Assembly: GCF_036507355.1 (NCBI RefSeq)
Contig: NZ_AP027877.1
Source of the DNA: Escherichia coli
GTDB taxonomy: Bacteria; Pseudomonadota; Gammaproteobacteria; Enterobacterales; Enterobacteriaceae
DNA length: 64,000 nt
Strand: one strand, 5' to 3'
The first letter of the stretch is position 1. Every line of letters begins with the position of its first letter. The notes under the pieces were generated by a model, which saw only the letters and a program-made list of their open reading frames with translations, did no database searches and was not told the DNA's origin. Made by a program: the position numbers and the translations under genes. Shown here piece after piece: positions 1-12,962 of this stretch.

Positions 1-656
1 GCTATTTATCATTACTCGATAATACCGGTGAAATGCTGGTTGCTATAAATGACATGAATATTAGCAACGCTATTACAGCTGAATATCTCGCACAGCACCG
101 TGAATTTATTCAGAGGGCAAAGGTCATTGTCGCGGACTGTAATATCAGTGAAGAGGCACTGGCATGGATTCTGGATAATGCTGCCAACGTACCCGTATTT
201 GTCGATCCGGTTTCAGCGTGGAAATGTGTCAAAGTGCGCGACCGTCTAAATCAGATCCACACTCTGAAGCCAAACCGCCTTGAAGCGGAAACACTGAGTG
301 GGATTGCGCTGTCAGGGCGTGAAGATGTGGCAAAAGTTGCTGCCTGGTTCCATCAACATGGCCTGAACCGACTGGTATTGAGCATGGGCGGCGATGGCGT
401 TTATTACAGCGATATCAGCGGTGAAAGTGGCTGGTCTGCGCCGATCAAAACCAATGTTATTAATGTTACCGGAGCGGGCGATGCCATGATGGCGGGACTT
501 GCTTCGTGTTGGGTAGACGGAATGCCGTTTGCCGAATCTGTTCGTTTCGCACAGGGATGTTCGTCAATGGCGCTCTCCTGTGAATACACCAATAACCCCG
601 ATTTATCGATTGCCAACGTTATATCGTTAGTGGAGAACGCAGAATGTCTGAATTAA
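1..656 (+). CDS. psuK: pseudouridine kinase, PfkB family (partial; 5' end lies outside the window)
   Basis: Frame of ORF 33..656 stays open back to window position 1; ribokinase/PfkB-type C-terminal motif VTGAGDAMMAGL; 13-nt overlap with the following glycosidase gene; synteny with psuG/psuT. Confidence 0.85.
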   Translation, partial: YLSLLDNTGEMLVAINDMNISNAITAEYLAQHREFIQRAKVIVADCNISEEALAWILDNAANVPVFVDPVSAWKCVKVRDRLNQIHTLKPNRLEAETLSGIALSGREDVAKVAAWFHQHGLNRLVLSMGGDGVYYSDISGESGWSAPIKTNVINVTGAGDAMMAGLASCWVDGMPFAESVRFAQGCSSMALSCEYTNNPDLSIANVISLVENAECLN

Positions 657-1582
657 AAATTTCCCCTGAATTATTACAAATTTCCCCGGAAGTGCAGGAC
701 GCTTTAAAAAACAAAAAACCGGTTGTGGCGCTGGAATCGACCATTATTTCTCACGGGATGCCGTTCCCACAAAATGCCCAGACCGCAATTGAAGTTGAAG
801 AAACTATTCGTAAACAGGGCGCAGTACCTGCCACTATCGCCATTATTGGTGGCGTGATGAAAGTGGGTTTAAGCAAAGATGAAATTGAATTACTGGGTCG
901 TGAAGGGCATAACGTGACCAAAGTTAGTCGTCGCGATTTACCTTTTGTTGTTGCCGCCGGAAAAAATGGCGCAACCACTGTGGCTTCAACGATGATTATT
1001 GCGGCGCTTGCCGGAATTAAAGTATTTGCCACCGGGGGAATTGGTGGTGTTCATCGCGGGGCGGAACATACCTTCGATATTTCTGCCGATTTGCAAGAAC
1101 TGGCAAATACTAATGTCACCGTTGTTTGTGCCGGGGCGAAATCTATTCTCGATTTAGGATTAACCACTGAGTATTTAGAAACCTTCGGTGTGCCGTTAAT
1201 TGGCTATCAGACTAAAGCGCTGCCTGCGTTTTTCTGCCGCACCAGCCCGTTTGACGTCAGCATTCGTCTCGACAGCGCCAGCGAAATTGCCCGTGCAATG
1301 GCGGTGAAATGGCAAAGCGGGCTGAACGGTGGCCTCGTGGTAGCGAACCCGATCCCGGAACAGTTTGCTATGCCGGAACACACTATCAATGCGGCGATCG
1401 ATCAGGCGGTAGCTGAAGCTGAAGCGCAGGGTGTTATTGGTAAAGAAAGTACGCCATTCCTGCTGGCGCGCGTTGCTGAGCTGACCGGCGGTGACAGCCT
1501 GAAATTCAACATCCAGCTGGTGTTCAACAACGCCATTCTGGCGAGCGAAATTGCCAAAGAATATCAGCGTCTCGCGGGTTAA
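644..1582 (+). CDS. psuG: pseudouridine-5'-phosphate glycosidase
   Basis: 312-aa ORF, length and sequence match recalled E. coli YeiN/PsuG; overlaps kinase gene upstream (operon). Confidence 0.9.
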   Translation: MSELKISPELLQISPEVQDALKNKKPVVALESTIISHGMPFPQNAQTAIEVEETIRKQGAVPATIAIIGGVMKVGLSKDEIELLGREGHNVTKVSRRDLPFVVAAGKNGATTVASTMIIAALAGIKVFATGGIGGVHRGAEHTFDISADLQELANTNVTVVCAGAKSILDLGLTTEYLETFGVPLIGYQTKALPAFFCRTSPFDVSIRLDSASEIARAMAVKWQSGLNGGLVVANPIPEQFAMPEHTINAAIDQAVAEAEAQGVIGKESTPFLLARVAELTGGDSLKFNIQLVFNNAILASEIAKEYQRLAG

Positions 1583-1675
1583 TTTCTGACGGGCAGAAAG
1601 CCGTCGCCCGTACTGATCATACATACCGAAACCTGGCGCTGACGCCGGGTTTACTGGCATGAAGGGAAAATCATT

Positions 1676-2926
1676 ATGGATATAATGAGAAGTGTTGTGG
1701 GGATGGTGGTGTTACTGGCAATAGCATTTCTGTTGTCGGTAAATAAAAAGAGCATCAGTTTGCGCACGGTTGGAGCCGCACTGCTGCTGCAAATCGCTAT
1801 TGGTGGCATCATGCTCTATTTTCCGCCGGGAAAATGGGCAGTAGAACAGGCGGCATTAGGCGTTCATAAAGTGATGTCTTACAGTGATGCCGGTAGCGCC
1901 TTCATTTTTGGTTCGCTGGTTGGGCCGAAAATGGATGTCCTCTTTGACGGTGCGGGTTTTATCTTCGCCTTTCGCGTACTTCCGGCGATTATCTTCGTCA
2001 CTGCGCTCATTAGTCTGCTGTACTACATTGGCGTGATGGGGCTGCTGATTCGCATCCTTGGCAGCATTTTCCAGAAAGCCCTCAACATCAGCAAAATCGA
2101 ATCTTTTGTCGCAGTCACCACTATTTTCCTCGGGCAAAATGAGATCCCGGCGATCGTTAAACCGTTTATCGATCGCATGAATCGAAACGAGTTGTTTACC
2201 GCAATTTGTAGCGGGATGGCGTCCATTGCTGGTTCGATGATGATTGGTTATGCCGGAATGGGCGTACCAATTGACTACCTGTTAGCGGCATCGCTGATGG
2301 CGATCCCCGGCGGTATTTTGTTTGCACGAATTCTTAGTCCAGCAACCGAGCTTTCGCAGGTCACGTTTGAAAATCTGTCGTTCAGCGAAACGCCGCCAAA
2401 AAGCTTTATCGAAGCAGCGGCGAGCGGTGCGATGACCGGGCTGAAAATCGCCGCCGGTGTGGCGACGGTGGTCATGGCGTTTGTCGCAATTATTGCGCTG
2501 ATTAATGGCATTATTGGCGGAATTGGCGGCTGGTTTGGTTTTGCCAATGCCTCTCTGGAAAGTATTTTTGGCTATGTGCTGGCACCGCTGGCGTGGATCA
2601 TGGGTGTGGACTGGAGTGATGCCAACCTTGCGGGTAGCCTGATTGGGCAGAAACTGGCGATTAACGAATTCGTCGCTTACCTGAGTTTCTCCCCATACCT
2701 GCAAACGGGCGGCACGCTGGAAGTGAAAACCATTGCGATTATCTCCTTTGCGCTTTGTGGTTTTGCTAACTTTGGTTCTATCGGTGTTGTCGTTGGGGCA
2801 TTTTCGGCTATTTCGCCAAAACGTGCTCCGGAAATCGCCCAGCTTGGTTTACGGGCGCTGGCAGCAGCAACGCTTTCCAACCTGATGAGCGCGACCATTG
2901 CCGGGTTCTTTATTGGTTTAGCTTGA
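1676..2926 (+). CDS. psuT: nucleoside (pseudouridine) transporter, NupC/CNT family
   Basis: 416-aa polytopic membrane ORF; paralogous to nupX in this window; operon position after psuK-psuG. Confidence 0.85.
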   Translation: MDIMRSVVGMVVLLAIAFLLSVNKKSISLRTVGAALLLQIAIGGIMLYFPPGKWAVEQAALGVHKVMSYSDAGSAFIFGSLVGPKMDVLFDGAGFIFAFRVLPAIIFVTALISLLYYIGVMGLLIRILGSIFQKALNISKIESFVAVTTIFLGQNEIPAIVKPFIDRMNRNELFTAICSGMASIAGSMMIGYAGMGVPIDYLLAASLMAIPGGILFARILSPATELSQVTFENLSFSETPPKSFIEAAASGAMTGLKIAAGVATVVMAFVAIIALINGIIGGIGGWFGFANASLESIFGYVLAPLAWIMGVDWSDANLAGSLIGQKLAINEFVAYLSFSPYLQTGGTLEVKTIAIISFALCGFANFGSIGVVVGAFSAISPKRAPEIAQLGLRALAAATLSNLMSATIAGFFIGLA

Positions 2927-2993
2927 GTTTCATTGCCGGATGTACTCGCTTATTAAGCGTTGCATCCGGCAATCGCGCTATTGCAAATAATTT

Positions 2994-3653
2994 TTACTGC
3001 ATCATCCCGGAGAATTTATTCTCCGGGTCCATCTCCAGCGCCAGTCCTGACAACTGCTTTCTGTTTTTAATGAGATATCCTTTCTTGCTTTTAATTAATA
3101 AACCGTCGTGAATGAATTGCGCGAGAACATATAAAAGATGTCGATAAGAAACGCCTAAATACTCTGCCGCTTGCGTATGCTTTTCGTGATAAAGATCACC
3201 TTCTTGTGAGAGTAATATAAATGCTGCCAGGCGATTCACTAACGGAAATGATTGATTCTGAGTTAAAGAAACAATATTACGATAATTTTTATGACTTAAG
3301 GTGACGCAAAGTTTTCGTAAAAATAGGGTGTCGTTTAATAACAGCGGACGGTAATGTTTCATAGGGAGCGCAAGGCACCAACACTCTTCAATCGCCTGTA
3401 CTGCACGTGGTTCATGGTCTTTATCGATTAACTCAATCTCGCCAATAAAACAGGGGGCGGCAAAGAAATCGATCAGCGACACGCAACCATTAGCTAGCGT
3501 GGCGTAAAGCCTGGCGCGGCCTCGCGTCAGGTAAAACAGCCAGGACGGCTGTTGCCCTTCCTGCACAATGTAGTCACGCGCTAAAAAATGAAACAGCCGC
3601 GTATCGGCTGAAACATCCGTTAAAAAGCAATCCTTAAACGCGGATTCACTCAT
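2994..3653 (-). CDS. yeiL: CRP/FNR-family transcriptional regulator
   Basis: ORF 2994..3692; start moved to internal Met ([10 protein letters not shown]...) giving 219 aa as recalled for YeiL; cNMP-binding-like N-terminus and C-terminal HTH. Confidence 0.8.
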
Positions 3654-3821
3654 CAATTGCTGCTTAAGATCATTATTGTGGATTTCTTTCACGATGTTTA
3701 TCCGCTATGAGATTTCTCATATTTAGCATACGTACGCTGTTGTTAAGATTCAATCATCGGCCCGGTCGAATTTTCTTTGCTGTAGAAAAAATAACGCAAC
3801 TGGAAACAGAGGAAATAAACA

Positions 3822-4763
3822 ATGGAAAAGAGAAAAATTATTCTGGATTGTGATCCGGGTCATGATGATGCTATTGCAATGATGATGGCAGCGAAACATC
3901 CGGCAATAGATTTATTAGGCATCACTATTGTAGCGGGTAATCAGACGCTTGATAAAACATTAATTAATGGCCTGAATGTTTGCCAGAAACTGGAGATTAA
4001 TGTTCCGGTTTATGCGGGGATGCCGCAACCCATTATGCGTCAACAAATCGTTGCCGATAATATTCACGGTGAAACCGGACTGGATGGCCCGGTATTCGAG
4101 CCGCTGACCCGCCAGGCAGAAAGTACCCACGCGGTGAAATACATCATTGATACCCTGATGGCAAGCGATGGCGATATCACTCTGGTGCCGGTTGGTCCGT
4201 TGTCAAATATCGCGGTGGCAATGCGTATGCAATCCGCAATCCTGCCCAAAATCCGTGAAATTGTGCTAATGGGCGGCGCTTACGGTACAGGCAACTTCAC
4301 GCCATCTGCCGAGTTCAACATCTTTGCTGACCCGGAAGCCGCACGCGTGGTGTTCACCTCCGGCGTTCCATTAGTGATGATGGGCCTCGATCTTACCAAC
4401 CAGACCGTTTGCACCCCGGACGTAATTGTTCGGATGGAAAGGGCAGGCGGCCCTGCCGGAGAGCTATTCAGCGACATCATGAACTTCACTCTCAAAACGC
4501 AGTTCGAAAACTACGGCCTGGCTGGCGGCCCGGTGCACGACGCCACCTGCATCGGTTATCTGATTAACCCTGATGGCATTAAAACCCAGGAGATGTACGT
4601 CGAAGTGGACGTCAACAGTGGCCCTTGCTATGGGCGTACCGTCTGCGACGAGCTGGGCGTTCTTGGCAAGCCCGCTAATACCAAAGTCGGCATCACTATT
4701 GATACCGACTGGTTCTGGGGCTTAGTCGAAGAGTGCGTGCGCGGCTACATCAAAACCCATTAA
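3822..4763 (+). CDS. rihB: pyrimidine-specific ribonucleoside hydrolase
   Basis: 313-aa ORF beginning [17 protein letters not shown] (nucleoside hydrolase DxDxxxDD aspartate motif). Confidence 0.9.
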
Positions 4764-4909
4764 GTGTTGATAACAAGCCGGGTCAGTATCGCAAAATGCA
4801 GGCCCGGCTATTTCTGAGGGGCAGAAAGCCGTCGCCCAATATGACATGAAGAGATAATAACTATGGATGTCATGAGAAGTGTTCTGGGAATGGTGGTATT
4901 GCTGACGAT

Positions 4910-4918
4910 TGCGTTTTT
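4910..4918. repeat. target-site duplication (left copy) TGCGTTTTT
   Basis: Identical 9-mer directly flanks both IS1 ends (4910..4918 and 5687..5695). Confidence 0.8.
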
Positions 4919-4973
4919 GGTGATGCTGCCAACTTACTGATTTAGTGTATGATGGTGTTTTTGAGGTGCTCCA

Positions 4974-5249
4974 GTGGCTTCTGTTTCTATCAGCTGTCCC
5001 TCCTGTTCAGCTACTGACGGGGTGGTGCGTAACGGCAAAAGCACCGCCGGACATCAGCGCTATCTCTGCTCTCACTGCCGTAAAACATGGCAACTGCAGT
5101 TCACTTACACCGCTTCTCAACCCGGTACGCACCAGAAAATCATTGATATGGCCATGAATGGCGTTGGATGCCGGGCAACAGCCCGCATTATGGGCGTTGG
5201 CCTCAACACGATTTTACGTCACTTAAAAAACTCAGGCCGCAGTCGGTAA
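4974..5249 (+). CDS. insA: IS1 InsA (transposition inhibitor / N-terminal part of InsAB' transposase)
   Basis: 91-aa [26 protein letters not shown]..., recognised IS1 InsA zinc-finger/HTH protein; GTG start. Confidence 0.9.
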
Positions 5250-5671
5250 CCTCGCGCATACAGCCGGGCAGTGACGTCATCGTCTGCGCGGAAATGGACG
5301 AACAGTGGGGCTATGTCGGGGCTAAATCGCGCCAGCGCTGGCTGTTTTACGCGTATGACAGGCTCCGGAAGACGGTTGTTGCGCACGTATTCGGTGAACG
5401 CACGATGGCGACGCTGGGGCGTCTTATGAGCCTGCTGTCACCCTTTGACGTGGTGATATGGATGACGGATGGCTGGCCGCTGTATGAATCCCGCCTGAAG
5501 GGAAAGCTGCACGTAATCAGCAAGCGATATACGCAGCGAATTGAGCGGCATAACCTGAATCTGAGGCAGCACCTGGCACGGCTGGGACGGAAGTCGCTGT
5601 CGTTCTCAAAATCGGTGGAGCTGCATGACAAAGTCATCGGGCATTATCTGAACATAAAACACTATCAATAA
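5168..5671 (+). CDS. insB: IS1 InsB reading frame (transposase catalytic part, expressed by -1 frameshift from insA)
   Basis: 167-aa ORF in -1 frame overlapping the insA 3' end, typical IS1 organisation. Confidence 0.85.
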
Positions 5672-5686
5672 GTTGGAGTCATTACC

Positions 5687-5695
5687 TGCGTTTTT
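5687..5695. repeat. target-site duplication (right copy) TGCGTTTTT
   Basis: See left copy. Confidence 0.8.
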
Positions 5696-6945
5696 ACTGT
5701 CAGTAAACAAGAAGAAGATCAGCCTGCGTACCGTTGGCGCGGCGTTAGTGTTACAGGTTGTGATTGGCGGGATTATGCTTTGGTTACCGCCAGGGCGTTG
5801 GGTCGCTGAAAAAGTCGCTTTTGGCGTGCATAAAGTGATGGCGTACAGCGATGCAGGTAGCGCATTTATCTTCGGTTCGCTGGTCGGGCCGAAAATGGAC
5901 ACGCTGTTTGATGGCGCAGGATTTATCTTTGGTTTCAGGGTGTTACCGGCAATTATCTTCGTCACCGCGCTGGTGAGTATTCTCTATTACATCGGTGTGA
6001 TGGGGATCTTAATTCGCATTCTCGGCGGTATATTCCAGAAAGCATTAAATATCAGCAAGATCGAGTCATTCGTCGCGGTCACTACCATTTTCCTCGGGCA
6101 AAACGAAATTCCGGCGATCGTCAAACCCTTTATCGATCGTCTGAATCGCAATGAATTATTTACAGCGATTTGTAGTGGCATGGCCTCGATTGCTGGTTCG
6201 ACAATGATTGGTTACGCCGCACTGGGCGTGCCTGTGGAATATTTGCTGGCGGCATCGTTAATGGCGATCCCAGGCGGGATCTTGTTTGCCCGCCTGCTAA
6301 GCCCGGCTATGGAATCTTCGCAGGTTTCTTTTAATAACCTCTCTTTCACCGAAACACCGCCAAAAAGCATTATTGAAGCTGCCGCGACAGAGGCAATGAC
6401 CGGGCTGAAAATCGCCGCAGGTGTGGCGACAGTAGTGATGGCATTTGTCGCCATCATTGCGTTAATTAACGGTATTATCGGCGGCGTTGGCGGCTGGTTT
6501 GGTTTTGAACATGCCTCGCTGGAATCCATTTTAGGTTACCTGCTGGCCCCACTGGCGTGGGTGATGGGTGTTGACTGGAGTGATGCGAATCTTGCCGGGA
6601 GTTTGATTGGTCAGAAACTGGCAATAAATGAATTTGTCGCTTATCTCAATTTCTCACCCTATCTGCAAACGGCTGACAAGCTGGATGCTAAAACCGTGGC
6701 GATTATTTCCTTCGCGTTGTGCGGTTTCGCTAACTTTGGTTCTATCGGGGTGGTGGTGGGGGCGTTTTCTGCGGTTGCGCCACACCGTGCGCCGGAAATC
6801 GCCCAACTTGGTTTACGCGCGCTGGCGGCGGCGACACTTTCTAATCTGATGAGTGCCACCATTGCCGGGTTCTTTATTGGTTTAGCGTAGTGTGCGATTT
6901 ATGAGCCGGATAATATGCGGTCAAGCGTCGAATCCGGCAACATTG

Positions 6946-8034
6946 TTACACCATTGGCATTAATGAAAGCGCGTTATCGGCAGACAAGGTAGGGTTATTT
7001 AAGCTGCCGCTGGCGCGTGAAATTGCCGCGCAGGCCATCGCAAAACGGGCGCTGTCACGGAAATTGTTTCCTTCCAGAAAGCTATATACCAGGCCCGCCA
7101 TAAAACCATCGTCAGCACCAAAACTGTCTACTGTCGTATGCGCTGGTGCGGTCAGCAAAAATTGTTCTCCATCCTTTTCGCTGCAATAAACTGACTCATC
7201 GGGCAAATAAACAAACAGTTGCTGAACACCTTGCTGATGCAACGCATTCACTGCAGCATTACGGTCAGCATCGCTGGTGATCGCCTGTCCCCATAAAATT
7301 TCCAGCTCCGGTAAAGTGGGTTTCAGGGTGTGAATATGCGCCAGCCAGTGTTTGATTTTGCCCGCTTTGAATTCTGAAACGGTATCGACAAACACCGGGA
7401 TCTCATCAGCGAGGGTAAAGACCCATTCCAGCGCCTCGGCTGTCAGGTTGCAATCAGCCAGTACCACGCCCGCATGACGAAGTAAATCGCGCGACCCGTT
7501 CAGTAGTTGCGGTGTCAACTGTTCCAGCAGATGGGTATCGTTAATCGCCAGCACGGTTTGATCGTCTCGATTGGCAATTGCCAGATACGTCGATGTGCTT
7601 TGACCATGCAAACGAACGCAGCCGGAGACATTCACGCCGGCACGGCGCGTTTCTTCCAGGAGCATTTCGCCATAAAAGTCATCGCCAATCACTGAAAGCA
7701 AATGGACGTCGCGGCCTAACAGCGCCAGATTGTGGGCGATATTGCGTCCAACGCCGCCTGCCGAGCAATGAATTGTACCGGGATGAGAAGCCGATTGCGG
7801 GTAACGGATATCCGCCATCCCGCGAATATCCATATTGATTGTCCCCACCACTACGCAGTATTCCTGCTCGGTGAGAATGTAACCTTTGCCTTTAATCCGG
7901 CCTTTGCGCATTAAATCCATAATATGCGCCGCAACGCGCGAACGGCTGATTTGCAGCATGTCCGCAATTTCGTTCTGCTGAATCAGCGGGTTACGCCGTA
8001 AAATTGCAAGGATCTCCTTTTCCCGGTTATTCAT
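6946..8034 (-). CDS. yeiI: PfkB-family sugar/nucleoside kinase with N-terminal HTH domain
   Basis: 362-aa ORF; N-terminal HTH (EILAILRRNPLIQQNEIADMLQISRSRV) fused to ribokinase-like domain (GADD motif). Confidence 0.85.
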   Translation of the reverse strand: MNNREKEILAILRRNPLIQQNEIADMLQISRSRVAAHIMDLMRKGRIKGKGYILTEQEYCVVVGTINMDIRGMADIRYPQSASHPGTIHCSAGGVGRNIAHNLALLGRDVHLLSVIGDDFYGEMLLEETRRAGVNVSGCVRLHGQSTSTYLAIANRDDQTVLAINDTHLLEQLTPQLLNGSRDLLRHAGVVLADCNLTAEALEWVFTLADEIPVFVDTVSEFKAGKIKHWLAHIHTLKPTLPELEILWGQAITSDADRNAAVNALHQQGVQQLFVYLPDESVYCSEKDGEQFLLTAPAHTTVDSFGADDGFMAGLVYSFLEGNNFRDSARFAMACAAISRASGSLNNPTLSADNALSLMPMV

Positions 8035-8036
8035 CT

Positions 8037-8894
8037 TCAGGCTACCGCTTTTTCAGTTTGTTGCGCTTTCAGCCAGGCGATCTCTTCTGCCCAGATATCC
8101 GGGTTGATGGTTTCGAGGATCAGCGGAATGCCGTCGAAACGGTCGTCCTGCATGATCCAGCGGAACGCATCATGACCGATATTGCCTTCACCGAGGCTAT
8201 GATGGCGGTCAACGCGGCTGCCAAAGGTGCTTTTCGCATCGTTAAGGTGCATCCCGCGCAGATACTTAAAGCCGACAATACGGGCAAAATCAGCGAACGT
8301 TTTCTCGCATTCGGCTGGAGTACGCAAATCATACCCGGCAGCGAAAGCATGGCAGGTATCAATGCAGACGCCGACACGGGATTTATCTTCCACGCCGTCG
8401 ATAATCGCCGCGAGATGTTCGAATTTAAACCCTAAGTTACTGCCCTGACCGGCGGTGTTTTCAATCACCGCGGTCACACCTTGAGTTTTATCCAGCGCAA
8501 TGTTGATGGATTCGGCAATACGCGCAAGGCAATCCTCTTCTGAAATCTGCATCAGATGGCTGCCAGGGTGGAAGTTGAGCAAAGAAAGCCCCAGCTGTTC
8601 GCAACGCTGCATTTCATCTATAAAGGCATCGCGCGATTTTTCCAGAGCTTCAGTGACCGGATGTCCGAGGTTAATCAGATAGCTGTCGTGGGGAAGAATT
8701 TGCGCCGATGTGTAGTGATATTTTTCACAGGCGGCTTTGAATTCATCGATGGTTTGCGTCGTGAGCGGTGCGGCACGCCACTGACGTTGGTTTTTGGTGA
8801 ACAAGGCAAACGCGGTTGCGTCGATTTCGGCGGCGCGAATTGCGGCATTTGCCAGACCGCCAGCAGCACTAACGTGCGCTCCAATGTATTTCAT
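8037..8894 (-). CDS. nfo: endonuclease IV (AP endonuclease)
   Basis: 285-aa [17 protein letters not shown]...; length and sequence as recalled for Nfo. Confidence 0.95.
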
Positions 8895-8967
8895 GCGAGG
8901 ACTCCTGTTAAACCCGCTGGAGGAAAACGGTAATGATAGCGGGTTAACAGGAGCAAGATGTAGTGGT

Positions 8968-10017
8968 TTATGCGATGACGCTTTGAATCACATAGTTAAT
9001 CGCACCACCACCAACAATCAGCCAGGCAAACAGTACCAGTGCCATCAGCAGAGGTTTCGCCCCGGCTTTTTTCAGCGCGCTGACGTGAGTGGTCAGACCC
9101 AGCGCCGCCATCGCCATTGCCAGCAGGAAGGTATCCAGCGTTACCAGCATGTTCACCACGCTCTGCGGTAACAGGTGGAACGAGTTAAAGATGGCAACTA
9201 CGATGAACAAGATGGCAAACCACGGAATAGTGATTTTGCTTTTCTCGCCGCTGTTCGCCCCAGACAGCTGTTTAACACGCGCCGCCAGCAGGATGAGGAA
9301 CGGAGCCAGCATCATCACGCGCAGCATTTTGGAAATAACTGCTGCGTTTTCCGCATCCGGGCTGATGGCATGACCTGCCGCCACCACCTGCGCCACTTCG
9401 TGCACAGTAGAACCAATGTAGATACCGAAAGTTTCCGGACTAAACCATTGAGACATCAGCGGATATATCGCCGGGTAGAGGAAAATCGCGACGGTCCCGA
9501 AGATAACAACGGTTGCAACAGCCACGGTTACTTTACTGGCTTCCGCTTTCACTACCGGCTCAGTCGCCAGTACCGCGGCAGCACCACAAATACTGCTACC
9601 GGCACCGATCAACCAGCTGGTGTGCTTATCCAGACCAAACACTTTCTGCCCCAGGAAGCAAGCCAGCAGGAAGGTACTGGACAGCGTCAGCACGTCAATG
9701 ATGATCCCACTGATACCGACATCGGCAATTTGCGAGAACGTCAGACGGAAGCCATAAAGAATGATACCCAGACGTAATAAATATTGCTTGGCAAACAGCA
9801 CACCACCGTCACAGCTTTTCCAGATGTGCGGATAGATGGTGTTGCCTAAAACCATCCCCAACAAGATTGCGAGGGTGAGGGCACTAAACCCGGCACCCGC
9901 AACCGCGGGAATGGAACCACCCCACAGGGCGACCCCGGTGATAACTGCACTCAGGGCTAACCCCGGAATAAAATGCCACAGTGTACGATGTTGTTTCTGT
10001 AAGGTGATATTCGTCAT
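8968..10017 (-). CDS. yeiH: UPF0324 family inner membrane protein
   Basis: 349-aa polytopic membrane ORF; divergent from the LysR regulator yeiE. Confidence 0.85.
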
Positions 10018-10115
10018 AACCCTCTCCTTTAACCGGGCATAAGGTTACGACTAACTGGTTTAAAAATAAAATTGATTATATATTTATAATTAATCTTTAT
10101 AAGTGGTAAGCGACT

Positions 10116-10997
10116 ATGCACATCACCCTCCGGCAGTTGGAAGTTTTTGCAGAAGTATTGAAAAGTGGATCAACCACCCAGGCGTCGGTGATGCTGGCGT
10201 TGTCGCAATCAGCAGTGAGCGCAGCCTTGACCGACCTGGAAGGGCAACTTGGCGTGCAACTGTTTGATCGCGTGGGGAAAAGACTGGTTGTTAATGAACA
10301 CGGGCGGCTGCTCTATCCGCGTGCGTTGGCATTGCTTGAACAGGCGGTTGAAATCGAACAACTGTTTCGCGAAGACAACGGCGCGATTCGTATCTATGCC
10401 AGTAGTACCATCGGTAACTACATTCTGCCTGCAGTTATCGCCCGTTATCGCCATGATTATCCGCAGTTGCCGATTGAACTTAGCGTTGGGAACAGCCAGG
10501 ACGTGATGCAAGCGGTGCTGGATTTCCGCGTTGATATTGGCTTTATTGAAGGACCGTGCCACAGCACTGAAATCATTTCTGAACCGTGGCTGGAAGACGA
10601 GCTGGTGGTTTTCGCCGCGCCGACTTCGCCGTTGGCCCGTGGTCCGGTCACCTTAGAACAGCTGGCCGCTGCGCCGTGGATCCTGCGTGAACGCGGCTCC
10701 GGCACGCGGGAGATTGTCGATTATCTGTTGCTGTCACATTTACCGAAGTTTGAGATGGCGATGGAATTAGGTAACTCCGAGGCAATCAAACATGCGGTGC
10801 GTCATGGGTTGGGAATTAGTTGCCTGTCGCGACGGGTGATTGAAGACCAATTGCAGGCAGGCACATTAAGTGAAGTTGCGGTCCCTCTGCCGCGCCTGAT
10901 GCGTACGTTGTGGCGTATACATCATCGGCAAAAACACCTTTCCAACGCGCTACGGCGCTTTCTGGACTATTGCGATCCCGCGAATGTACCGTGTTAA
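10116..10997 (+). CDS. yeiE: LysR-type transcriptional regulator
   Basis: 293-aa ORF with N-terminal LysR HTH ([24 protein letters not shown]...). Confidence 0.85.
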
Positions 10998-11201
10998 GTT
11001 GCTGTACAAGAACATGCTGGTGCTGTGTCGATTTCGTGACGCAGCGCCCTCAGCATGCATTCGCCAGAAAAGAGATTGGCTGCTTTACTTATAATCCCTG
11101 GGCGATCATGAAGGTGTCTTATAACCGTGTATTTCTGCCGGAAGGATTGCCAATCGTCTGCTACAATCGCGCCTCATTTTTTAGATGGATAGCATTTTTG
11201 T

Positions 11202-12671
11202 ATGGTTTCCGAAACTAAAACCACAGAAGCGCCGGGCTTACGCCGTGAATTAAAGGCGCGTCACCTGACGATGATTGCCATTGGCGGTTCCATCGGTACA
11301 GGTCTTTTTGTTGCCTCTGGCGCAACGATTTCTCAGGCAGGTCCGGGCGGGGCATTGCTCTCGTATATGCTGATTGGCCTGATGGTTTACTTCCTGATGA
11401 CCAGTCTCGGTGAACTGGCTGCATATATGCCGGTTTCCGGTTCGTTTGCCACTTACGGTCAGAACTATGTTGAAGAGGGCTTTGGCTTCGCGCTGGGCTG
11501 GAACTACTGGTACAACTGGGCGGTGACTATTGCCGTTGACCTGGTTGCAGCTCAGCTGGTCATGAGCTGGTGGTTCCCGGATACACCGGGCTGGATCTGG
11601 AGTGCGTTGTTCCTCGGCGTTATCTTCCTGCTGAACTACATCTCTGTTCGCGGCTTTGGTGAAGCGGAATACTGGTTCTCACTGATCAAAGTCACGACAG
11701 TTATTGTCTTTATCATCGTTGGCGTGCTGATGATTATCGGTATCTTCAAAGGCGCGCAGCCTGCGGGCTGGAGCAACTGGACAATCGGCGAAGCGCCGTT
11801 TGCTGGTGGTTTTGCGGCGATGATCGGCGTAGCTATGATTGTCGGCTTCTCTTTCCAGGGAACCGAGCTGATCGGTATTGCTGCAGGCGAGTCCGAAGAT
11901 CCGGCGAAAAACATTCCACGCGCGGTACGTCAGGTGTTCTGGCGAATCCTGTTGTTCTATGTGTTCGCGATCCTGATTATCAGCCTGATTATTCCGTACA
12001 CCGATCCGAGCCTGCTGCGTAACGATGTTAAAGACATCAGCGTTAGTCCGTTCACCCTGGTGTTCCAGCACGCGGGTCTGCTCTCTGCGGCGGCGGTGAT
12101 GAACGCAGTTATTCTGACGGCGGTGCTGTCAGCGGGTAACTCCGGTATGTATGCGTCTACTCGTATGCTGTATACCCTGGCGTGTGACGGTAAAGCGCCG
12201 CGCATTTTCGCTAAACTGTCGCGTGGTGGCGTGCCGCGTAATGCGCTGTATGCGACGACGGTGATTGCCGGTCTGTGCTTCCTGACCTCCATGTTTGGCA
12301 ACCAGACGGTATACCTGTGGCTGCTGAACACCTCCGGGATGACCGGTTTTATCGCCTGGCTGGGGATTGCCATTAGCCACTATCGCTTCCGTCGCGGTTA
12401 CGTATTGCAGGGACACGACATTAACGATCTGCCGTACCGTTCAGGTTTCTTCCCACTGGGTCCGATCTTCGCATTCATTCTGTGTCTGATTATCACTTTG
12501 GGCCAGAACTACGAAGCATTCCTGAAAGATACCATTGACTGGGGCGGCGTAGCGGCAACGTATATTGGTATCCCGCTGTTCCTGATTATTTGGTTCGGCT
12601 ACAAGCTGATTAAAGGAACCCACTTCGTACGCTACAGCGAAATGAAGTTCCCGCAGAACGATAAGAAATAA
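11202..12671 (+). CDS. lysP: lysine-specific permease (APC family)
   Basis: 489-aa ORF MVSETKTTEAPGLRRELKARHLTMIAIGG...; amino-acid permease signature. Confidence 0.95.
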   Translation: MVSETKTTEAPGLRRELKARHLTMIAIGGSIGTGLFVASGATISQAGPGGALLSYMLIGLMVYFLMTSLGELAAYMPVSGSFATYGQNYVEEGFGFALGWNYWYNWAVTIAVDLVAAQLVMSWWFPDTPGWIWSALFLGVIFLLNYISVRGFGEAEYWFSLIKVTTVIVFIIVGVLMIIGIFKGAQPAGWSNWTIGEAPFAGGFAAMIGVAMIVGFSFQGTELIGIAAGESEDPAKNIPRAVRQVFWRILLFYVFAILIISLIIPYTDPSLLRNDVKDISVSPFTLVFQHAGLLSAAAVMNAVILTAVLSAGNSGMYASTRMLYTLACDGKAPRIFAKLSRGGVPRNALYATTVIAGLCFLTSMFGNQTVYLWLLNTSGMTGFIAWLGIAISHYRFRRGYVLQGHDINDLPYRSGFFPLGPIFAFILCLIITLGQNYEAFLKDTIDWGGVAATYIGIPLFLIIWFGYKLIKGTHFVRYSEMKFPQNDKK

Positions 12672-12690
12672 GTTTCTCCCTTCCTTGCTA

Positions 12691-12716
12691 AGCCCTCTCA
12701 ACCGAGAGGGCTTATT
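12691..12716 (+). terminator. hairpin terminator downstream of lysP
   Basis: Inverted repeat AGCCCTCTC-aacc-GAGAGGGCT followed by T-containing tract. Confidence 0.5.
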
Positions 12717-12768
12717 CAATTCCATTTCCCTGACAAATCATGTGGATATAAAATTTAACATTTGGATT

Positions 12769-12794
12769 GATAATTGTTATCGTTTGCATTATCG
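12769..12794. promoter_or_regulatory. Fur-box-like sequence in cirA promoter
   Basis: GATAATTGTTATCGTTTGCATTATC resembles Fur consensus GATAATGATAATCATTATC; cirA is a classical iron-repressed gene. Confidence 0.45.
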
Positions 12795-12962
12795 TTACGC
12801 CGCAATCAAAAAAGGCTGACAAATCAGAGGCTGGTCCGGTTTTCTGGGATGATCACCTGCATACAAATAAGTCCACCGCGATGCTGCCGTACGCAAGGGG
12901 ACGTGAAGAAGATGTGAGCGATAACCCATTTTATTTTCGTAGTTACCTCATGGAGATATGGA

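Follow-up and report, generated by a model that had tools for sequence, protein, structure and literature searches.

The yei nucleoside-salvage locus of Escherichia coli K-12 comprises psuK (yeiC), psuG (yeiN) and psuT (yeiM), followed by yeiL, by rihB (yeiK) with nupX (yeiJ), and by yeiI. The transporters YeiJ and YeiM have already been described as CNT-family paralogs of NupC (PMC3368855, PMC11241209). The first part of a 64,000-nucleotide stretch of the E. coli contig NZ_AP027877.1 (RefSeq assembly GCF_036507355.1), hereafter the window, is this locus in reverse orientation; by RefSeq annotation of syntenic E. coli records its genes and their order and orientation are like those of K-12. 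It differs from the K-12 locus in that nupX is split by an IS1 element and in that the psuK-rihB segment is no more than 99.0% identical to that of any of 5,426 complete E. coli genomes. Neither the locus nor the paralogy of YeiJ and YeiM is new, and the IS1 lesion is ordinary and strain-specific; the subject here is the origin of psuT and nupX, their surroundings and their control.

The explanation preferred here, with a probability of roughly 0.7, is that the region is a standard Escherichia yei locus made up of two modules, with an old duplication of a single transporter gene, separate regulation of the two modules, and a nupX gene killed by IS1. Module P (psuK, psuG and psuT, with convergent yeiI) would carry out uptake and degradation of pseudouridine, and module R (yeiL, divergent from rihB-nupX) would carry out uptake and hydrolysis of pyrimidine ribonucleosides. 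The transporter gene and its leader would have been duplicated before the Enterobacteriaceae radiated, psuT being the derived copy that was recruited behind psuG. The N-terminal halves of the two proteins would then have diverged, including nucleobase-contact residue 188 (methionine in PsuT, threonine in NupX, valine in vcCNT), and neighboring 3' halves would occasionally have been homogenized by gene conversion. Regulation would be separate, with a YeiL-type palindrome before rihB only, and with a CRP-like site and operator-like boxes belonging to the psu operon itself, possibly served by YeiI. In the window strain, insertion of IS1 at codon 19 would have cut transcription of nupX from the rihB promoter and left a pseudogene that gathers damaging substitutions.

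PsuT and the reconstructed NupX are 87.3% identical in protein sequence and 78.3% identical in DNA sequence with no gaps over 416 codons, which is far beyond chance and bears out an initial annotation of the window that had called them paralogs. Identity is 92% at codon positions 1 and 2 and 52% at position 3, and the two genes are direct repeats on the same strand, with starts that are 3,187 bp apart without IS1. The initial annotation also took the duplicated unit to be a transporter together with a catabolic enzyme, but the enzymes are not homologous: PsuG is an IndA-like protein (PF04227), RihB is an inosine-uridine-type nucleoside hydrolase (PF01156), and BLASTP finds no similarity between them (E = 5.6). 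The shared DNA begins only about 50 to 95 nt upstream of each transporter ATG, excluding the upstream genes, and this leader homology consists of a 28-nt block that is identical at 27 of 28 positions (1582-1609 versus 4810-4837) plus the ribosome-binding region. What was duplicated by descent is, as read from these alignments, a single transporter gene with a short leader; since PsuG and RihB are unrelated, no enzyme-plus-transporter unit would have been duplicated. A second pair of paralogs at the locus, omitted from the initial annotation, is PsuK and YeiI, the PfkB domain of YeiI having 39% identity to PsuK. Similarity 3' of both transporter stop codons was considered as a boundary of the duplication and rejected, as it consists of repetitive extragenic palindromic (REP)-type repeats that are common in Escherichia flanks. 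In the window these repeats lie at 2935-2975 and 6900-6940; in some Escherichia genomes they overlap the final two codons and change them (GCG TAG versus GCT TGA), giving a false appearance of exchange between the paralogs.

The age of the duplication was estimated from trees of 56 transporters labeled by the gene upstream, either T (psuG-linked, n = 34) or X (rihB-linked, n = 22). Bootstrap support for the split between T and X was 0.83 with the whole protein, 0.67 with codon positions 1 and 2, 0.93 with residues 1-200 and 0.04 with residues 201-416, and support for a sister grouping of Escherichia PsuT and NupX was 0.03 (protein; codon positions 1 and 2). Four residues are perfectly diagnostic of the 34 T versus the 22 X sequences: V/A56, I/V112, M/T188 and M/L195. 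The psuT gene of the window, which adjoins psuG downstream, carries V56, I112, M188 and M195 as do 34/34 psuG-linked genes, and the reconstructed nupX, which is directly downstream of rihB, carries A56, V112, T188 and L195 as do 22/22 rihB-linked genes. The claim of an ancient duplication is upheld by these four residues, which are diagnostic across many genera, and by the synonymous third-position identity of the E. coli pair, which at 56% falls within the saturated between-genus background of 45-58%. A protein database search with PsuT for an outgroup returned, among the 120 matches listed, near-identical proteins of Enterobacteriaceae only; the outgroups used were CNTNW (53% identical) and a bacteriovorax homolog. 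In the rooted tree, monophyly of T received 0.79 and monophyly of X received 0.03, and psuT-type genes are therefore nested within rihB-linked diversity. The T proteins are 90-94% identical to X proteins of Enterobacteriaceae, and either type is about 80% identical to the X proteins of Pantoea. By the simplest reading, a rihB-linked transporter gene with its leader appears to have been copied behind psuG in the stem of the Enterobacteriaceae, the direction being inferred; the duplication would predate the radiation of this family, its age and polarity not being secure.

Gene conversion between the copies is seen in part of the sample. No differences are fixed between T and X after residue 195, which matches conversion of the 3' half. 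Compared with the 45-58% background, synonymous identity is raised in the co-resident pairs of Citrobacter amalonaticus S646 (74%), Entomohabitans (68%) and Phytobacter diazotrophicus (67%). The psuT and nupX genes of E. coli SCPM-O-B-8794 (6800-8047 and 10001-11248 of comparison locus L005) share an identical tract of 137 nt (nt 1078-1214), and those of C. amalonaticus S646 (L016), which have 88.5% DNA identity overall, share one of 116 nt; identical runs in pairs that are not co-resident have a median of 23 nt and a maximum of 73 nt. The longest identical run of the window pair, at 29 nt, is within this background. The long tracts of E. coli SCPM-O-B-8794 and C. amalonaticus and the raised identity of Phytobacter are located in the 3' half, and that of Entomohabitans nearer the 5' end. 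The 3' halves are thus exchanged by gene conversion in some genomes, the window genome not among them. The psuT gene of E. albertii was considered as a chimera formed by deletion between psuT and nupX, and rejected as such: its nupX-like sites near the 3' end are also found in psuT of Citrobacter and represent ancestral psuT states.

A scan of one genome per species yielded 59 loci, which were annotated by tblastn with the E. coli proteins. In Enterobacteriaceae, the interval from fruBKA to nfo-yeiH-yeiE is filled in three ways: type A (psuK-psuG-psuT-yeiI) is found at approximately 27 loci, in most Citrobacter, Enterobacter, Klebsiella, Kosakonia, Buttiauxella and Kluyvera and in E. albertii; type B, with both modules, in E. 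coli, E. whittamii, cryptic Escherichia clades, C. amalonaticus S646, Entomohabitans and P. diazotrophicus; and type C, with yeiL-rihB-transporter only, in Citrobacter sp. 18056, Salmonella enterica arizonae, Buttiauxella sp. B2 and Pluralibacter. Away from this interval, the yeiL-rihB-transporter cassette stands by itself in Pantoea, Izhakiella, Ewingella, Hafnia and Superficieibacter, and in Klebsiella spallanzanii it is located 1.5 kb upstream of fruB, across fruBKA from psuKGT on the same contig (L015, L044). The regulator gene yeiL accompanies the rihB-linked transporter in 22/22 cassettes and is in no psuKGT-only locus, while yeiI is in every psuKGT locus and missing from 4/4 type C loci. 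From this strict co-occurrence, it follows that the natural units are P (psuK-psuG-psuT plus yeiI) and R (yeiL/rihB-nupX); these are separately inherited, and in Escherichia R is nested in P, with psuT on one side and yeiI on the other. The R cassette is taken to be the older context of the transporter because Pantoea, Izhakiella, Ewingella and Hafnia have it on its own at unrelated loci. The initial annotation's picture of sister modules around a shared regulator finds no support, as yeiL travels with rihB-nupX and is absent from the approximately 27 psuKGT-only loci. Its layout of genes over 1-6890 holds in identities and coordinates and falls short in extent, the relevant unit running past 6890 to yeiI. 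Its assumption of a local, tandem origin may hold: the presence of both modules in the same fruBKA-nfo interval of Enterobacteriaceae is compatible with a local origin, and the R cassette is also present by itself at unrelated loci. Nested, independent modules with only a transporter in common correct the over-reading of gene order as duplication of a module. Damaged loci were also observed: Escherichia sp. MOD1-EC7003 (L004 6900-8130) has lost psuK and psuT and has a truncated psuG; a metagenome contig (L108 8835-9957) lacks most of nupX between rihB and yeiI, and its psuT matches in two pieces; and the psu and yeiI matches of Citrobacter koseri NCTC10786 (L048) are fragmented, which may reflect sequence quality or decay.

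A tandem duplication of an enzyme-plus-transporter unit around yeiL, with one enzyme later replaced or diverged past recognition, would explain why both modules have the same layout (an enzyme gene and then, about 95-100 nt on and in the same orientation, a transporter gene), why both leaders contain the hairpin H1 described below, and why the locus holds a second pair of paralogs. It is nonetheless very improbable, given that PsuG and RihB are dissimilar proteins of unrelated Pfam families, that DNA homology ends at the leader and that each module is found alone in many genomes; moreover, PsuK and YeiI cannot have been duplicated in one event with the transporters, because their identity is much lower (39% versus 87%) and yeiI is on the opposite strand. 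Independent acquisition, in which the R cassette evolved elsewhere and was brought horizontally into a psuKGT-yeiI locus by means of the homology of its transporter gene to psuT (for example, when a circular form recombined by a single crossover near the 3' end) and patchiness arose by repeated excision and integration, is regarded as unlikely; the two transporter genes would then be neighbors at a site other than that of their original duplication. The same patchiness could be obtained by repeated deletion between direct repeats, there are no signatures of hybrid junctions, the psuT of E. albertii, which has no cassette, is psuT-like nearly throughout, and rihB-linked transporters of different genera are not so similar at synonymous sites as recent transfer would make them. 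Such acquisition would nevertheless fit a cassette that is self-contained at unrelated loci of five genera (Pantoea, Izhakiella, Ewingella, Hafnia and Superficieibacter) and across fruBKA in K. spallanzanii, that varies within genera (three architectures in Citrobacter and two each in Buttiauxella, Phytobacter and Escherichia), and that sits exactly between psuT and yeiI with nupX next to yeiI, the order expected of a crossover at the transporter; the last 100 nt or so are the most similar part of the two genes (88-91%), and within E. coli this segment is far more polymorphic than the sequence beside it. This model, too, would have psuT and nupX derive from one duplication.

A recent duplication specific to Escherichia, or concerted evolution there, by which the 87% identity would reflect youth and not constraint, can scarcely be credited when the synonymous identity of the E. 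coli pair is at the level of the saturated between-genus background, the sister grouping is rejected by the trees of protein and of codon positions 1 and 2, four residues are fixed between types in 56 sequences, and no identical run of the window pair exceeds the background. The conversion tract of one Escherichia genome (137 nt) speaks for it, as does a neighbor-joining tree of all nucleotides that joins Escherichia PsuT and NupX (0.69); recent duplication on the strength of this tree was rejected, the grouping being read as a compositional effect because third positions are saturated and the GC content at third codon positions is the same in both genes (0.56). The preferred reading of an old single-gene duplication has several points against it. 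The all-nucleotide grouping may have its source in an old conversion in the Escherichia stem; all trees are neighbor-joining trees, with moderate support for the full-length T/X split (0.67-0.83); the outgroup CNTNW has at position 195 the state of T and not that of X; and nesting of T within X could be mimicked, because conversion between co-resident copies pulls the X proteins of Enterobacteriaceae towards T. The sampling of loci was limited by two peptide patterns, and psuT-type genes outside Enterobacteriaceae could escape it.

The PsuT numbering equals that of vcCNT through the first half of the protein, G153-Q154-N155-E156 of PsuT being aligned with G153-Q154-T155-E156. Residue Val188 of vcCNT contacts the nucleobase (bioRxiv 10.1101/2023.02.03.527023), and the fixed difference of methionine versus threonine at position 188 lies in the base pocket because it aligns with this residue. 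Weak uptake of uridine and cytidine was reported for NupX, and none of uridine, cytidine or xanthosine for PsuT (PMC11241209). These observations are compatible with a division of substrates in which PsuT would be specialized for pseudouridine and NupX for uridine and cytidine, and the swap at position 188 offers a testable hypothesis for selectivity between pseudouridine and uridine/cytidine in CNT transporters.

The initial annotation was correct that one copy is disrupted by IS1. The element in nupX has the length of about 768 bp, the inverted repeats, the insA and insB' frames and the target duplication of 8-9 bp by which IS1 is recognized: its terminal inverted repeats read directly as GGTGATGCTGCC.../...GGAGTCATTACC, and the 9-bp duplication is TGCGTTTTT at 4910-4918 and 5687-5695. 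Removal of IS1 and one copy of the repeat restores a frame of 416 codons that is colinear with intact nupX. A search of 5,426 complete E. coli genomes found the junction of IS1 and nupX in none of them, and with a best match of 99.0% over 1-4900 this points to an E. coli or Shigella-type lineage outside that collection. With the insertion NupX loses its first 18 residues, and with them most of its first transmembrane helix, so that nupX is predicted to be a pseudogene that has lost its function. Insertions of IS1 are polar, as in the classical gal and lac mutations, and transcription from the rihB promoter should be blocked for this reason. The remainder of NupX has four private substitutions, among them T224M (threonine in 54/55 relatives) and G251E (glycine in 55/55), whereas the one private change of PsuT is at a hypervariable site; the private substitutions of NupX and a change in its leader hairpin at 4818 look like signs of decay after inactivation. 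Against complete inactivation, an in-frame TTG at 5673 in the end of IS1 opens a fusion frame of 405 amino acids, from which residual truncated NupX may be expressed. In all, IS1 was observed at four places of the locus in four strains: in yeiI (L001 8151-8848), in the spacer of fruA and psuK (L002 1556-2253), in psuG (L182 4750-5447) and in nupX (window).

The spacer between yeiL and rihB, which is 127-137 bp in almost every cassette, contains once per cassette a perfect palindrome that is a candidate YeiL operator (Table 1). Its 14-nt core, ATGAGATTTCTCAT, is identical in 21/22 yeiL-rihB spacers from Escherichia to Pantoea and Hafnia, and was found nowhere else in the window or in 61 comparison loci and never upstream of psuK or psuT. 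The TA-N3-T of an extended -10-like element that begins 19 nt after the palindrome is kept in nearly all cassettes, being absent from Pluralibacter (L038) and displaced by an insertion in S. enterica arizonae (L027). The center of the palindrome would lie about 42 bp upstream of the implied transcription start, a geometry like that of class II activators, and the palindrome is 14-29 nt upstream of the yeiL start codon; we infer that it is a YeiL operator for activation of rihB-nupX and autoregulation of yeiL. YeiL is reported to have only about 20% similarity to other members of its family in PMC3590769, which cites Anjum et al. 2000 for the proposal that it is a regulator of nitrogen starvation in post-exponential phase. 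The suggestion in the initial annotation that yeiL might regulate both units found no computational support, the candidate operator being only in the yeiL-rihB spacer, and the psu genes are probably outside the control of YeiL. Upstream of psuK, beyond the edge of the window (about 60-180 nt; L003, L011, L016 and others), there are a CRP-like TGTGA-N6-TCATA, an TTTACTTT block and two operator-like boxes centered on ACATGT. These elements are unrelated to the yeiL palindrome and are kept in nearly all genera examined, but not in Entomohabitans (L021). A scan for sigma-70 and terminator consensus sequences found no promoter-like site before psuT or nupX, and overall fewer sites than in shuffled sequences.

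The pseudouridine-contact residues that were defined for E. coli PsuK (PMC9061257), and with them its catalytic residues, are all kept in 34 orthologs of YeiI (N14, D16, S30, Y97, N112, N143, K170, K185 and D256), with the fixed changes M114T and G255D (GAGD to GADD) relative to PsuK. Because it keeps these residues, carries a helix-turn-helix (HTH) domain and always accompanies psuKGT, YeiI, which the literature calls uncharacterized, is a candidate for a kinase or a pseudouridine-responsive regulator of module P, and may serve the psu genes as sensor or regulator. The wiring of the psu genes is of some practical interest in view of recurrent selection in gut-colonizing E. coli, the psu region being a recurrent target and the psuK/fruA spacer having been reported as a recurrent target in E. 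coli of the mouse gut (PMC9509342). For three poorly characterized components, namely the YeiL operator, YeiI and the hairpin H1, concrete regulatory hypotheses are thus available.

The one unexplained feature of the region is H1, a hairpin that is conserved across Enterobacterales in the leaders of both transporter genes. The exact core, GGGCAGnnnGCnGTCGCCC, precedes nearly all transporter genes linked to psuG or rihB, with one copy per transporter and no other copy in approximately 1 Mb of comparison sequence or in the window; Hafnia and Izhakiella have a hairpin of other sequence in its place. H1 consists of a GGGC/GCCC core with one to three covarying outer pairs (CG 32, UA 14 and UG 3 at alignment columns 80/100; AU 19 and GC 11 at columns 79/101) and an 11-nt loop, AGnnnGCnGUC, and its stem is predicted independently by RNAalifold. 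Rfam 15 has no family that matches 1583-1675 or 4764-4862 at E values up to 1. Genomes that lack yeiL still have H1, as do genomes that lack yeiI; H1 therefore depends on neither, and it is not a simple mask of the ribosome-binding site because the spacing between it and the start codon ranges from about 26 to 66 nt (roughly 30-70 nt upstream of the ATG). In the nupX leader of the window, the flanking U-A pair is broken by the T-to-G change at 4818, all other Escherichia nupX leaders having GATGGGC. A pseudoknot between the H1 loop and an A-rich tail was dropped from consideration, the complementary triplet being unconserved. A metagenome scan with the H1 pattern matched at least 120 stretches; among the matches listed, two are yei loci and the others are GC-rich contigs (median 65.5% GC). 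The matches in ten low-GC contigs and L098, which were examined, are chance-like and uninformative about other gene contexts. A second hairpin, H2, is found in nearly all psuT-type leaders (degenerate in Entomohabitans), where it is 91% paired across sequences, and in 1/22 rihB-linked leaders, that of K. spallanzanii. The best guess is that H1 is an element of the mRNA that sets expression of the transporter relative to the upstream enzyme, either through processing or stability or as a protein- or ligand-dependent switch. A bolder proposal, for which the odds are put well below even, is that H1 (nnGGGC-AGnnnGCnGUC-GCCCnn) was inherited through the duplication and represents an undescribed cis-regulatory RNA of this CNT clade, for example one that responds to a protein or ligand and tunes transporter expression inside the operon independently of the transcription factor of the operon, with the terminator-like H2 as an elaboration in the psuT type.

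The gene content of window positions 1-8900 was assigned by open reading frame (ORF) listing, by scans with NCBIfam and Pfam, and by comparison with annotated E. coli chromosomes, all of which were concordant, and every gene of the yei region but nupX is full-length, psuK being a partial gene at the window edge. As it is truncated by this edge, psuK scores 467 bits to NF007355 over 207 amino acids, against a cut-off of 540; its remnant is 99-100% identical to annotated PsuK by tblastn. The curated cut-off of TIGR00804, the NupC/NupG family of nucleoside CNT transporters, is 442 bits, a score that PsuT and the remainder of NupX both exceed, and the domains Nucleos_tra2_N, Gate and Nucleos_tra2_C are all in both proteins. 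YeiL has the domains cNMP_binding (PF00027) and HTH_Crp_2 (PF13545). The psuK-rihB segment is present in approximately 5,383/5,426 complete E. coli genomes; measured over window positions 1-4900, its identity to the window is at least 99% in 1 genome, 95-99% in 2,833, 90-95% in 2,540 and 80-90% in 57, while that of the comparison segment nfo-lysP (8037-12936) is at least 99% in 3,786 genomes and 95-99% in 1,639. The psuK-rihB segment is thus far more polymorphic than the adjoining nfo-lysP, which suggests deep haplotypes or imported alleles at this locus.

Table 1. Features of the yei region of the window, by position.
Feature	Position	Strand	Description
psuK	window edge (1)-656	+	pseudouridine kinase; 3' two-thirds, 5' end outside the window; NF007355 profile positions 107-313
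psuG	644-1582	+	pseudouridine-5'-phosphate glycosidase; intact, 312 aa; Pfam PF04227 (Indigoidine_A), 439 bits; annotated psuG in syntenic E. coli records
H1 of psuT leader	1589-1611	+	ACGGGC-AGAAAGCCGTC-GCCCGT; core GGGCAGnnnGCnGTCGCCC
H2 of psuT leader	1629-1652	+	AAACCTGGCG-CTGA-CGCCGGGTTT; 10-bp stem, then UUU
psuT	1676-2926	+	CNT-family transporter, pseudouridine-operon type; intact, 416 aa; TIGR00804, 514 bits
yeiL	2994-3692	-	CRP/FNR-family regulator; intact, 232 aa; NF007707, 415 bits (cut-off 180)
Candidate YeiL operator	3706-3721	strandless	perfect palindrome TATGAGATTTCTCATA; TGA-N6-TCA core (TATGA-N6-TCATA)
Putative rihB promoter	3741-3749	+	extended -10-like element TGTTAAGAT
rihB	3822-4763	+	pyrimidine ribonucleoside hydrolase; intact, 313 aa; NF007417, 722 bits (cut-off 459); Pfam PF01156 (IU_nuc_hydro)
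Hairpin after rihB	4776-4809	+	terminator-like, strong (folded); variable-sequence hairpin there in most rihB-linked cassettes
H1 of nupX leader	4819-4837	+	core identical to psuT copy
nupX	4863-6890	+	split by IS1
nupX 5' fragment	4863-4918	+	18 codons + 2 nt; colinear with intact nupX of E. coli 23CRST042
IS1	4919-5686	+	768 bp, in nupX orientation
insA	4974-5249		intact; NF033558
insB'	5168-5671		intact; NF033558
nupX 3' part	5696-6890	+	codons 19-416; TIGR00804, 484 bits on IS1-fused ORF 5673-6890
yeiI	6946-8034	-	winged-HTH + PfkB domain; intact; psuK paralog
nfo	8037-8894	-	intact
yeiH	8968-10017	-	intact

Compared with known systems, the IS1 lesion matches the classical polar inactivations by this element: an operon's second gene carries a 768-bp IS1 flanked by a 9-bp target duplication, and there is nothing unusual in it. 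The candidate YeiL palindrome has the same TGA-N6-TCA core and the same class II distance as promoters activated by CRP (TGTGA-N6-TCACA) and FNR (TTGAT-N4-ATCAA), but its half-site differs from the consensus of both. The tufA and tufB genes of enterobacteria are paralogs that evolve in concert by gene conversion. Like them, co-resident psuT and nupX have long identical tracts and, in some genomes, raised synonymous identity; unlike them, they undergo only partial conversion, mainly of the 3' half, while the 5' half keeps four fixed differences and is not homogenized. They are thus a small, clean example of a pair of paralogs in which the half that would bear specificity stays distinct while the other half is converted. 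The transporters align over their full length with the CNT proteins of solved structure, vcCNT (3TIJ) and CNTNW (5L26), at E values of 1e-125 to 1e-131 and approximately 53% identity, and have in common with them the HP1 motif G153-Q154-x-E156 and the ribose-contact region. As read from the alignment, they differ from these structures in having asparagine and not threonine at position 155, methionine (PsuT) or threonine (NupX) and not valine at position 188, and threonine and not asparagine at position 149 of the sodium site.

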